Part shown: positions 61,183 through 64,000 of the stretch, in pieces
How the letters are laid out: each line of letters opens with the position of its first letter
Position numbering within the stretch: the first letter of the stretch is position 1
NCBI GenBank assembly: GCA_022969815.1
Contig: GCA_022969815.1_4535.1
Length of the DNA: 64,000 nucleotides
DNA from: Escherichia coli
GTDB taxonomy: Bacteria; Pseudomonadota; Gammaproteobacteria; Enterobacterales; Enterobacteriaceae
Strand: one strand, 5' to 3'
Notes under the pieces: model-generated
What the model saw: only the letters and a program-made list of their open reading frames with translations
Told to the model about the DNA's origin: nothing
Database searches by the model: none
Made by a program: the position numbers and the translations under genes

Positions 61183-61220
61183 AAAAAGAAAGGGCGCTTG
61201 GTGCGCCCCTTGTTTTGTTG
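61183..61220. terminator. bidirectional intrinsic terminator
   Basis: GGGCGC-ttggt-GCGCCC hairpin with AAAAAGAAA upstream and CTTGTTTTGTTG downstream. Confidence 0.6.
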
Positions 61221-61224
61221 TCAA

Positions 61225-61644
61225 TTATAACGCTTCATATATTGAGTAGATCCGGTTTGCCAGGTCATTACGAAAGCGGAATTTTTCATCACGTTTAATC
61301 ATCAGATCCTTAAAACCGCATTCTTTCAATGCTTCGTTAACTTTACTGCGGCATACTTTCATATTGTCCTGCGCGTCACCAATAAACTTATTGCTATGAT
61401 GCATTGCTTTGATCTCTTCCTCCAGGACCAGGGCAACTACACGGATCGGATCAAGCTGATACGCGGTAACATCCATGCGGCATTGTAAACGGCTTTTAAC
61501 GTCTGCCACCGGATATACTGCAACCTCTTCCCCGTCAACGTTCACGATAACCAGTTTACCATCAATTTCGAAGCCTTTCGCGGCGCTACCGTGGCAAAAA
61601 GCGTTATCGAAGGAGTAAGCCGGATTATTTGATTTAATGTTCAT
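61225..61644 (-). CDS. hypothetical protein (139 aa)
   Basis: ORF with AAAGGACAAC SD-like, own promoter and terminator. Confidence 0.5.
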   Translation of the reverse strand: MNIKSNNPAYSFDNAFCHGSAAKGFEIDGKLVIVNVDGEEVAVYPVADVKSRLQCRMDVTAYQLDPIRVVALVLEEEIKAMHHSNKFIGDAQDNMKVCRSKVNEALKECGFKDLMIKRDEKFRFRNDLANRIYSIYEAL

Positions 61645-61689
61645 GTTGTTGTCCTTTGTTTCGTTTCGTTGTTTGCTGCCAGTGAGTTA

Positions 61690-61718
61690 AATATAATATA
61701 ACGCCGATCCCCTGTCAA
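61690..61718 (-). promoter_or_regulatory. sigma70-like promoter (minus strand) with GGATC in spacer
   Basis: minus strand TTGACA-ggGGATCggcgttatat-TATATT. Confidence 0.5.
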
Positions 61719-61750
61719 TAGGGGATAGCGCATTATTTACATTTCTTTAC

Positions 61751-61777
61751 GTTAAAGGGCGCTTAGTGCGCCCTTGT
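61751..61777 (-). terminator. terminator-like hairpin (near copy of 61183..61220)
   Basis: GGGCGC-ttagt-GCGCCC; T-run weaker. Confidence 0.45.
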
Positions 61778-61783
61778 ACAATC

Positions 61784-62152
61784 TTACTTTGTGCGGTTGT
61801 AAACGTTATCGCGTTCAACCATCAAAGCAAGGCGGATCAGTTGATCAGTTGTATCGCGTAAGCTGTCAGGCCATGTTTTATTGTTCCAGCTATCTAAATT
61901 TGATTGAATATAGGTTTCAATGGCTTGATCCATATTGTCGAACAAGTTTGCCTCCAGGCTCTCGGCTGTTTCACACTGGAAAGCATCAGCGACACTATTA
62001 ATCAATAAGCAAGCCAGTAAATCAGCGTTGCGCCAATTTTTACGGATAGTTTCATCTTTCAGATAACCAACGAGATCAACCTTTGCGCCAGTGGTGGACG
62101 TTGCGATCACTTCTTGCGCTTTTTCAACTGCTTTAATTGCTGATTTGCTCAT
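61784..62152 (-). CDS. hypothetical protein (122 aa)
   Basis: ORF with AGAGGAAAG SD. Confidence 0.5.
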   Translation of the reverse strand: MSKSAIKAVEKAQEVIATSTTGAKVDLVGYLKDETIRKNWRNADLLACLLINSVADAFQCETAESLEANLFDNMDQAIETYIQSNLDSWNNKTWPDSLRDTTDQLIRLALMVERDNVYNRTK

Positions 62153-62230
62153 TTTACTTTCCTCTTTGTGGGCTTGCTGTATTGCTCGCCCTACGCAATA
62201 ACTATAAGTTAACAGGGTATATAAAGCAAG

Positions 62231-62464
62231 CTATTTTTTATAAAATTTTTCTGCTGTGATATTCTTCCCTGTAGGCTTAACCGCTTGCAAGATCTTATCA
62301 TGTGCCGAACGTCCAAAAGAATAAGATCCGTACACGGTAAACCAATAATCGCCATTGGGTTGCACGGTTACGGCGGCGTATGGTATGCCTTTTTCATTGT
62401 CACCGATAAAGTGTGAAACATTGCCGTTAACATTGGGTGTAGTGCTTTTAATTTGTCCGATCAT
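62231..62464 (-). CDS. hypothetical protein (77 aa)
   Basis: ORF with AGGAATAAC SD preceded by 5' hairpin. Confidence 0.5.
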   Translation of the reverse strand: MIGQIKSTTPNVNGNVSHFIGDNEKGIPYAAVTVQPNGDYWFTVYGSYSFGRSAHDKILQAVKPTGKNITAEKFYKK

Positions 62465-62512
62465 GATGTTATTCCTATATTAGACGGGAAACATTCCCGC
62501 CCTACGTGATAA

Positions 62513-62541
62513 ATAATAATATAAGGGTGATCCGGTGTCAA
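62513..62541 (-). promoter_or_regulatory. sigma70-like promoter (minus strand) with GGATC in spacer
   Basis: minus strand TTGACA-ccGGATCacccttatat-TATTAT. Confidence 0.5.
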
Positions 62542-62716
62542 TAGGTAGAATTGTAAAGATTTGATAGTTTGTCTCTTTGTTGTTTTGTTATTTGATAGGT
62601 GTTAGCTATCAATATATAGCGGGGTCGTCCGGTGATTACCTCCCCCGTTGCCAGTGCCGCCCGTTCAATAAGCATAACAAAAAACAGGACAAAAGCAAGC
62701 CCTGTTTTTGTAAAGA

Positions 62717-62908
62717 TTAGATCTCGTCACCTATATAATCAGATCTGTTCTTCTCTGTCATACGCTTTAATAATTCTTGCATATGGCTGATAGCTTGCAA
62801 TGTGTCTTCTTCCAGGCTTGAATCGAGATAATCAGGATCATTCTTTACCTTGCTATGGTTGTGATACCGCAACGCTGCTAATACCTTTCTAACTTGTTCT
62901 GCATTCAT
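62717..62908 (-). CDS. hypothetical protein (63 aa)
   Basis: ORF with AAGGAGTAA SD. Confidence 0.45.
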   Translation of the reverse strand: MNAEQVRKVLAALRYHNHSKVKNDPDYLDSSLEEDTLQAISHMQELLKRMTEKNRSDYIGDEI

Positions 62909-63051
62909 TTTTATTACTCCTTAAAACCAGGTGCCAACCGTTTCCAATAGGTCACTGACTACCAGAACAACACCGATTAGCACATATTTAATCAGGAAGG
63001 GGATTAGCGCCAGCGTTGCTACTATGATCCCCATTGTCGTGATTACCTTTC

Positions 63052-63342
63052 TCATTGTTGGCGGTTTACGTAAGCTTTACCGTTTACGGTCATCGGTATG
63101 GCCTCAAGGTCTGGATCTTCCTTAAGGTCGCGTGCAAGCTCACCGCACCGGACCCCCTCGAATCCGTGGTATTCTGTTTCCCCGTCCTTAAAAGTTTTAG
63201 CGGCAAGGCATAGGCGATAATTAACCCCGATCCGGTTTACTGCGTTGATATCGGTTAACGTGATCGATTCCGGCAAATCGTTAGCCATTACAGGCGCGTT
63301 AATACCAACAACCAGGGCAACTACTGCGATCATCTTTTTCAT
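63052..63342 (-). CDS. small secreted/periplasmic protein (signal peptide)
   Basis: MKKMIAVVALVVGINAPVMA N-terminus; AGGAAGAGGA SD. Confidence 0.5.
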   Translation of the reverse strand: MKKMIAVVALVVGINAPVMANDLPESITLTDINAVNRIGVNYRLCLAAKTFKDGETEYHGFEGVRCGELARDLKEDPDLEAIPMTVNGKAYVNRQQ

Positions 63343-63377
63343 GTGTCTATCCTCTTCCTATTGCGTTTAATGGGGTG

Positions 63378-63614
63378 TTATTGATTGATGTTATGATGAA
63401 AGTTATTTTCTTCAATGGCTTTTAAAATAAAAGCCGTGATCGCTTTCGTGTCTACTTGTTCGAACGTATCAGAATAAGCCCAATAATAATCATCCCCTAC
63501 TTTAGGCGGGTAAACCTGGACAAGGAGATCGCCACCTGGTTGATCTATAAGCTCAACATGTAAGCCGGATGATTCAGCGGTTTTAACGGCGGTTAATACT
63601 GTTGCAATACTCAT
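63378..63614 (-). CDS. hypothetical protein (78 aa)
   Basis: ORF with AGGAAGGGAA SD preceded by GGGGCG...CGCCCC hairpin. Confidence 0.5.
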   Translation of the reverse strand: MSIATVLTAVKTAESSGLHVELIDQPGGDLLVQVYPPKVGDDYYWAYSDTFEQVDTKAITAFILKAIEENNFHHNINQ

Positions 63615-63659
63615 AATCTTTTCCCTTCCTGATGTGGGGCGTTGCCGCCCCTTTGTTGA

Positions 63660-63959
63660 TTAGATCGCTGTTTCCAGTAGTTCGGCTAACGTCTTACCGC
63701 CTGATAGTTGGTCTAACGTTTGCTCTTCTGGCAAGAAATTAGCGGATATTAAACCGACTTGATTCCCTTTGTGCCAGTTAGCCTGGCGGGTGATTCCATC
63801 CTTTAAGGATTTTACCGCCATTGTGCAACCGTTGCCAAATGATTCATTTTTATGGTCCATCACTTCATAAGCGCCCAGCTTGCTGCTGTTAGGCACCATT
63901 AACGCGAATACATCACCAACAACCAGTTTTTCTACGGTAACAATAGCGATAGTTTCCAT
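63660..63959 (-). CDS. hypothetical protein (99 aa)
   Basis: ORF with GAGGAAAAC SD preceded by GGCGGCA...GCCGCC hairpin. Confidence 0.5.
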   Translation of the reverse strand: METIAIVTVEKLVVGDVFALMVPNSSKLGAYEVMDHKNESFGNGCTMAVKSLKDGITRQANWHKGNQVGLISANFLPEEQTLDQLSGGKTLAELLETAI

Positions 63960-64000
63960 TTTGTTTTCCTCATTATCGGCGGCACCATTGCCGCCCTACG

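Follow-up and report, generated by a model that had tools for sequence, protein, structure and literature searches.

The small minus-strand genes at positions 61183-64000 of a 64,000 nt stretch of DNA from an Escherichia coli assembly (GCA_022969815.1; the whole stretch is called the window here) belong to a phage early-gene cluster in which a modular promoter cassette is repeated. In this cassette a sigma-70 promoter is followed, at the predicted transcription start, by the motif CGTAGGGCG and a GC-rich leader hairpin. We consider it probable that this hairpin is a 5’-proximal stabiliser or insulator in an early-expression cassette whose copies double as recombination points. Window positions 61000-64000 matched 228 phage records and corresponded to Phapecoctavirus genomes, with 96% identity to phiWec179 and 95% to Schickermooser. 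Phapecoctavirus comprises phAPEC8-like E. coli myophages of ~150 kb in the subfamily Stephanstirmvirinae. The matched region is the last part of a cluster of ~40 small co-oriented open reading frames (ORFs) in these genomes, the early cluster, which spans 11-12 kb and stops ~1 kb short of the genome terminus. An earlier note had drawn attention to hairpins in the leaders of these genes; its location was correct, its description partly wrong and its interpretation mostly wrong, and it had overlooked the position of the motif at the predicted transcription start, the ~20-fold promoter cassette and the copies as recombination points.

Exact copies of CGTAGGGCG occur three times in the 64 kb, all on the minus strand and each ~40 nt ahead of a start codon. 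With up to one mismatch allowed, 10 matches were found compared to 3.35 ± 1.89 in shuffled sequences, and none of 100 shuffles reached 10; the seven one-mismatch matches are scattered over the window. The non-random recurrence of the motif before three genes, claimed in the earlier note together with a conserved promoter, was thus affirmed by the three exact copies, and the frequency in relatives is likewise beyond chance: 16 kb of Schickermooser hold 14 exact copies of the heptamer GTAGGGC, each on the coding strand and 29-30 nt past a TTGACA-like -35 element. GGTAGGGCG at 777-785 was considered as a fourth promoter-linked copy and rejected as a chance match inside tRNA-Ser(tga) (700-789).

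Copy 1 (63992-64000, minus strand, as are all copies and hairpins described here) is cut by the window edge and its promoter lies beyond 64000; at its counterpart in phiWec179 and Schickermooser a TTGACA/TTGATC promoter is located 29-30 nt upstream. The predicted +1 is G 63999, and the leader hairpin (63978-63995; GGCGGCA-AUGG-UGCCGCC) has 7 bp, an energy of -14.2 kcal/mol and a z-score of -3.3. Cassette 2 has the promoter TTGACA-17-TATTAT (62513-62541), which agrees with the consensus at 11 of 12 positions, followed by copy 2 at 62498-62506 (62482-62506 including the hairpin) with G 62505 as predicted +1 and a hairpin of 9 bp including G·U pairs at 62482-62502 (-13.0 kcal/mol, z -2.8). The promoter of cassette 3, as read from the sequence, is weaker (TTGCTT-17-TATAGT, 62201-62229) and lies directly after the upstream stop codon; copy 3 at 62187-62195 has its predicted +1 at 62194 and, within 62168-62195, a weaker interrupted stem (-11.5 kcal/mol, z -4.3). 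Folding of the leaders, which the earlier note had proposed as a check, gave stable hairpins at all exact copies (z -2.8 to -4.3), with the Shine-Dalgarno sequence (SD) and the AUG single-stranded downstream of all three. The tails after the hairpins are CACAAC, CGAUAA and CUAAUA.

A fourth GC hairpin, which had been announced upstream of 63378..63614, was found at 63636-63651 (GGGGCG-GCAA-CGCCCC, -14.1 kcal/mol, z -3.8); it is intergenic and promoter-less. As none of the four hairpins is followed by a U-tract on the minus strand, they are not intrinsic terminators, in agreement with the earlier note, and a terminator scan flagged none of them on this strand. Read on the plus strand, the hairpin at 63636-63651 is followed by TTTGTTGATT and was flagged as terminator-like; in this orientation it could serve as a stop for antisense transcription.

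A promoter-first scan revealed the general layout of the cassette. The resulting set comprised 75 promoter-defined hairpin leaders from nine phage loci and the window, 64 of them unique. The cassette of ~85-95 bp consists of an A-rich upstream stretch, TTGACA, 16-17 nt, TAnnnT, a 7-nt discriminator with the consensus gTATCAC, a purine and TAGGGCGG, after which come the rest of the hairpin, an unstructured CA/A-rich spacer of ~12 nt, a purine-rich SD and the ATG. CGTAGGGCG starts 7 nt after the sigma-70 -10 hexamer, and TAGGGCGG opens the GC-rich hairpin of 6-11 bp (mostly 8-10, mode 8), which starts at nt 1-6 of the leader, with the stem beginning 8-13 nt after the -10 element, and ends near nt 25. 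The AUG follows ~20 nt past the hairpin end, and leader length is 38-50 nt across the set. Two descriptions in the earlier note had to be revised accordingly. The leaders it called long are predicted to measure 40-42 nt in the window, where the promoter fills most of each intergenic gap, and the motif is not followed by the stem-loop but overlaps it, GGGCGG forming its 5’ arm.

Position 7 after the -10 element is a C in 58 of the 75 leaders and position 8 a purine in 68. Based on this pyrimidine(-1)/purine(+1) signature, transcripts are predicted to begin no more than 2 nt from the R of RTAGGGC. In hairpin-less promoters of the same loci the equivalent C-A sits one position earlier. A +1 at position 8 would leave 0-5 unpaired nt before the stem; alternatively, transcription may start 2 nt upstream.

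The hairpins of the set have a mean energy of -13.9 kcal/mol and a mean z-score of -4.3, and 48 distinct hairpin sequences were counted among the 64 unique leaders. The region comprising the SD and AUG has an unpaired probability of 0.66, and folding favours the sense over the antisense strand in 34 vs 16 cases (p = 0.01). Base pairs were analysed on the model-fitted alignment A6 (E ≤ 0.05), which holds 35 distinct rows. In this alignment 92% of the cells pair, compared to 34-64% in controls with slid partners, changes on both sides of a pair occur in 13 cells vs 5.5 in shuffles (0 of 500 reaching 13), and the covariation score is 0.157 vs 0.098 (0 of 500 shuffles). Pair 10-34 is C-G in 23 rows and switched to G-C in 6, while G·U prevails at pair 5-39 (20 rows). 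Concordantly, the stems in front of orthologues of the 77-aa gene at 62231-62464 differ among the window with Schickermooser, Eryne, EmilieFrey with phi92, A73, and Asteriusvirus. The orthologues in Justusliebigvirus, A73 and Asteriusvirus each have a promoter cassette with a differing leader hairpin sequence; in rV5/slur16 a promoter-less intergenic hairpin is present instead of the cassette. Structure rather than sequence is thus conserved, and the compensatory changes, the G·U pairs, the sense-strand folding bias and the differing orthologous stems favour a coding-strand structure at the RNA level over a DNA palindrome.

Several models and alignments were set aside in the course of this analysis. 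The covariance model R1, which was based on the most frequent class of hairpins, scored 42.2 bits at 63971-63999 (copy 1) and only 10.6 and 14.9 bits at copies 2 and 3, and was too sequence-specific to serve as a general model. Alignment A3 (E ≤ 5) contained noise and was replaced by A6, and a MAFFT alignment of leaders with unequal stems misaligned the 3’ arms and was not used for pair counts. Rfam 15 gave no match at E ≤ 1 in window 59000-64000, and no gathering-level Rfam match was obtained across 79 kb of related early regions.

The cassettes are restricted to the early cluster. Schickermooser L001 3008-13780 holds ~20 coding-strand copies of the degenerate motif RTARRGCG[GCA], and the preceding 37 kb one; in the window the 8 occurrences of this motif on both strands, including the 3 real copies, are at chance level (8.4 in shuffles). 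Among 126 annotated early gene starts of four genomes, 54 had a promoter and a hairpin, 17 a promoter only, 17 a hairpin only and 38 neither, giving an odds ratio of 7.1 for co-occurrence, the p-value of which is inflated by partly orthologous loci. A 53-nt cassette query detected the element throughout Stephanstirmvirinae, and also in Vequintavirinae (slur16, nimi, PDX, phiTE, SSE121 and Cronobacter phages) and Klebsiella phage ZCKP1. Shorter exact matches were found in jumbo Asteriusvirus and T5-like phages, and in both groups they fall in the terminal repeat that is the first to enter the cell. Cassettes that are analogous but have other stems are present in phi92, rV5-like phages, phiTE, SSE121 and the Asteriusvirus terminal repeat. 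The direct terminal repeat of Asteriusvirus vB_Ec-M-J (L125, L139) carries ~15 cassettes of the same layout with the different stem GGGGAGAA-UAG-UUCUCCCC, one copy beginning with GTAGGGCGGCAATGGTGC. EcMJ_045, 046 and 050 are homologues of Phapecoctavirus early ORFs, a DNA search identified EcMJ_010 as a relative of the window’s 77-aa gene, and the window ORFs 62231-62464 and 62717-62908 are among those with Asteriusvirus homologues.

Not a single match to the cassette was obtained in 5,426 complete E. coli genomes, and a host origin of the element was rejected on these grounds. A scan of IMG/VR with TTGACA-N28-31-GTAGGGCG was too unspecific, returning nearly all single chance matches, and was not used; a search of IMG/VR with the 77-aa protein yielded one close relative, and orthologues were therefore drawn from GenBank phages. 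Papers on rV5 and Certrevirus give sigma-70-like promoters and no leader hairpin, and no description of the leader hairpin was found in the literature searched, the coverage of which was incomplete.

Two further observations concern other phage regions. The 27-nt sequence TATTATTTATCACGTAGGGCGGCAATG, comprising the -10 element, discriminator and first transcribed bases, is common to window 62492-62518 and T5-like phages; in the T5-like Salmonella phage Seafire its region is found at L124 5494-5640 in the left terminal repeat (pre-early region). The T5-like leader is ~130 nt long, folds at -31 kcal/mol (z -2.9) and has the mutually exclusive pairings AAGTTTACCGCC and GGCGGTAAACTT. The non-coding segment of Schickermooser at 137.1-137.5 kb (L001 2255-2607), which has no counterpart position inside the window, contains an oppositely oriented near-consensus promoter at L001 2597 and shares short segments with Seafire (L124 1353-1408, 5440-5467) and phiTE (L128 6815-6983); it may encode a conserved small RNA.

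In four comparisons the cassettes act as crossover points or module borders. A cassette of the rV5-like phage slur16 (L127 7838) combines the promoter half of the Schickermooser cassette at 10620 with the hairpin-and-gene half of that at 10895; the halves join within TAGGGCGG, and the ORF that separates these Schickermooser cassettes is removed. The phiWec179 cassette before the orthologue of 63660-63959 is likewise a chimera of two Schickermooser cassettes, with the switch inside CGTAGGGCGGCAATGGTGCCGC, loss of ORF 00286 and a junction exactly at the window edge. Moreover, the window lacks, at 62710-62722, one complete module of cassette plus 67-aa ORF that occupies L001 13282-13563 in Schickermooser. 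Besides Schickermooser, phiWec179, ZCKP1 and slur16 also carry this module (Schickermooser_00291, phiTE_096-like), and phiTE and Asteriusvirus have more distant homologues; the junction in the window is clean from stop codon to stop codon, both ends being ATCTAA, the stops of the flanking ORFs. Modules in common between slur16 and Schickermooser stand in different orders, and alignment identified the fourth hairpin of the window (63636-63651) as the 3’ remnant of a cassette still complete in phi92.

In the explanation that we favour, host RNA polymerase would fire the cassette promoters straight after DNA entry, and each early mRNA would bear a stable stem-loop within a few nt of its 5’ end. 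This stem-loop would hinder 5’-end-dependent attack by RppH and RNase E and, by keeping the 5’ end from pairing with the following ORF, leave the ribosome site open whatever gene is inserted. Stabilisation of E. coli mRNAs by 5’-terminal stem-loops is known from the ompA leader and the T7 phi10 leader. Since ~20 near-identical head-to-tail copies lie in one cluster of 11-12 kb, the cassettes would also serve as homology patches, at which recombination deletes, inserts and reorders modules of cassette plus small ORF within and between phage lineages.

Several observations weigh against this explanation. The literature searched contained neither transcript 5’-end data nor a transcript-mapping study for these genera. 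Position 6 after the -10 element is an A in 53 of the 75 leaders and transcription could start at that A, which would leave 5-7 unpaired nt before the stem, above the 2-4 unpaired 5’ nt reportedly tolerated in ompA-type protection. Pairing of nt +1 with nt 25 was not significant (Fisher p = 0.13), 11 of 35 sequences being unpaired there, and a fully paired 5’ end, for which this terminal pair had been considered as proof, is therefore not claimed. A few hairpins, namely hairpin 4 and that of rV5/slur16, are intergenic and promoter-less, so that the hairpin may have a role independent of the 5’ end. Furthermore, RTAGGGC is conserved beyond the needs of a generic hairpin and is kept before the 122-aa gene in Justusliebigvirus even where the hairpin is lost, which points to an extra constraint, either on initiation or via concerted evolution. 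Finally, the counts of leaders, structures and gene starts include orthologous, non-independent loci, and A6 is model-fitted.

The promoter-less hairpins lead to an alternative in which the hairpin works on read-through transcripts, either as an intercistronic attenuator or pause site or by protecting the upstream cistron from 3’-to-5’ exonucleases once the RNA has been cleaved in the A-rich spacer. Between most cassettes and the stop codon that precedes them there is no terminator, so internal copies must be present in read-through RNAs, and promoter-less copies stand between genes at window 63636-63651, upstream of gp170 in rV5/slur16 and elsewhere. Attenuation of transcription by stem-loops has also been shown for promoter-early stem-loop (PeSL) cassettes (PMC2839356). 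However, the coding strand has no U-tract, genuine T-run terminators stand separately in the cluster, and the hairpins show a strong association with promoters and a constant spacing to the -10 element; we regard this alternative as rather unlikely. The conservation of RTAGGGC might instead mean that RUAGGGCGG and the hairpin form the recognition site of a trans-acting factor that co-regulates all early messages, such as a phage early-shutoff nuclease, a translational repressor or a host RNA-binding protein. This would fit the unusual conservation of the motif, its persistence as GTAGGGC after hairpin loss in Justusliebigvirus, the loop motifs AAUGGU and AAUAGUU, which recur in ~20 copies per genome and across lineages, the 27-nt identity with T5-like phages and the copy in Asteriusvirus. 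It is set against by the several stems and loops that coexist in one genome, by compensatory changes that keep the pairing and not the sequence, and by the direct observation of recent duplication and gene conversion, which can explain sequence uniformity; moreover, no candidate factor was identified. The operators for a translational repressor proposed in the earlier note fare no better, as stems and loops are varied, with 48 distinct hairpins, changes are compensatory, and the hairpin ends ~20 nt upstream of the AUG without overlapping it or the SD. Regulation by a trans-acting factor is thus a doubtful explanation that we would give little weight.

It is improbable, in our estimation, that the element acts at the DNA level only, as an inverted-repeat operator or recombination site whose RNA hairpin is a by-product and whose conservation reflects concerted evolution. 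The inverted-repeat arms do lie at +4 to +25, a classic operator position, and the crossovers map inside the element, but a prevailing G·U at one pair and a sense-strand folding bias are unexpected for a DNA palindrome, half-sites differ between copies in one genome, and every copy is co-oriented with transcription. Processing by RNase III, the other function suggested in the earlier note, is very hard to reconcile with the stems. Early mRNAs of phage T7 are processed by RNase III at intercistronic hairpins, and the hairpins described here are likewise devoid of U-runs. Natural E. coli RNase III sites extend over about two helical turns, and minimal substrates have ~11 bp. With 6-11 bp the cassette stems are at or below the minimal substrate and far from the natural sites of ~20 bp, and they do not have the internal-loop architecture of T7 R1.1-type sites; they are thus too short to support this interpretation.

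A bolder version of the factor hypothesis, which we mention as speculative and rather unlikely, is that RUAGGGCGG and the hairpin constitute a dedicated, horizontally mobile 5’-end tag of immediate-early mRNAs that is read by a putative phage or host factor. If so, this factor would set the fate of early messages through protection, timed shut-off or 5’-end modification, and the cassette would move, carrying small accessory ORFs, among unrelated virulent enterobacterial phages of the Stephanstirmvirinae, Vequintavirinae, jumbo Asteriusvirus and T5-like Demerecviridae. Reading of the conserved 5’ end by a specific factor would represent a new layer of early-gene control. In the stabiliser and insulator role that we prefer, the cassette would explain how ~40 small early ORFs of unknown function are expressed in phi92/phAPEC8-like phages, which are candidates for phage therapy, and the same design logic is found in rV5-like and jumbo coliphages. 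Genes for host takeover and anti-defence are probably among the early ORFs. The cassette would also offer a compact natural promoter, stabiliser and ribosome binding site part for E. coli and a sequence signature for spotting immediate-early genes in new genomes, and recombination between its repeated copies a concrete mechanism for mosaic early-gene turnover between phage families.

The genes served by the cassettes are small minus-strand ORFs, and PHROGs families of unknown function cover all eight ORFs of the region, in none of which Pfam found a significant domain. Transcription from 63999 would yield a unit of five ORFs (63959-62717), headed by a 99-aa early ORF (63660-63959, phrog_22684, function unknown) and continued by 63378-63614, 63052-63342, 62921-63055 and 62717-62908; it is closed by an intrinsic-terminator-like hairpin with T-run at 62680-62709. 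The description of these genes as monocistronic was therefore not confirmed; a promoter of its own is present only at each of the last three. Cassette 2 precedes the 77-aa ORF (62231-62464, phrog_9227) and cassette 3 the 122-aa ORF (61784-62152, phrog_15368). The last gene of the cluster (61225-61644) is driven by a strong paralogous promoter, TTGACA-17-TATATT (61690-61718); despite this promoter its leader (61645-61682) is without the motif and unstructured (0 kcal/mol). A second intrinsic-terminator-like hairpin with T-run (61189-61211, minus strand, like the first) marks the end of the early cluster before a non-coding stretch near the genome end.

The early cluster adjoins an ORF-free region at 59700-61180. 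Window 59938-60030 corresponds with 82% identity to the final ~93 nt of the right terminal repeat annotated in phi92, and window 60147-61286 to the non-coding end of the Schickermooser record. The genome probably ends physically within 59700-61180, with the early cluster transcribed towards this end. Just past the non-coding region, three tandem minus-strand ORFs (122, 121 and 141 aa) lie at 58552-59687; the first two are 46% identical (BLASTP, E = 4e-29), and the third, as read from the ORF list, has N-terminal motifs as in the first two. Elsewhere in the window, a tRNA cluster (400-1176, minus strand; Tyr, Ser-gct, Ser-tga, Arg-tct, Met) is preceded by a TTGACA promoter at 827. A second class of minus-strand promoters, with -35 elements at 56284, 50624, 48901, 48064, 46330 and 44090, has near-consensus sigma-70 hexamers and short unstructured leaders of the type TCAACAACAAGAGGAGAGAGAACATG with no 5’ hairpin.

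Hairpins in promoter-proximal or intercistronic positions of phage early transcripts are also a feature of T7 RNase III sites and of lambdoid nut/boxB. In contrast to T7-type RNase III sites, the cassette stems are too short and too regular, and unlike in lambdoid nut/boxB, the loops AUGG and UAG are not boxB-like pentaloops, no boxA is adjacent, and ~20 copies are present per genome instead of the usual two nut sites. By analogy, the leader, with a stable hairpin near its predicted 5’ end, an unstructured spacer and an SD, resembles the ompA 5’-UTR and the T7 phi10 leader used in pET vectors. For a function of the ompA type, structure would be expected to matter more than sequence, which matches the 48 distinct stems. 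However, ompA and T7 phi10 are single-gene features, whereas the hairpin described here is part of a ~20-fold unit with an added RTAGGGC start.

The closest known system is the PeSL cassette of the T4-type phages RB49/phi1, PST and nt-1 (Arbiol et al. 2010, PMC2839356; Comeau et al. 2014, PMC4122927). Both are repeated intergenic motifs of ~100 bp that combine an AT-rich upstream stretch, a consensus sigma-70 early promoter, a GC stem-loop, an SD and a start codon, and both are concentrated in a hyperplastic region of small ORFans. In both, copies recombine to give indels or swaps of ORF modules, represented here by the chimeras and a single module indel. The stem-loop of a PeSL precedes the -35 and -10 elements, separates them or overlaps them, and terminates or attenuates upstream transcription (PMC2839356, PMC4122927). 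In contrast, the stem-loop of the cassette is located downstream of the -10 element in the transcribed leader, starts at the predicted +1 to +6 and has no U-run, and the phages that carry it (Stephanstirmvirinae, Vequintavirinae, Asteriusvirus) are unrelated to those with PeSLs. As its stem-loop is part of the transcribed leader and has no U-run, the cassette does not show one defining feature of a PeSL and is not one; it represents the same evolutionary strategy in a variant form, joined to a leader of the 5’-stabiliser type.

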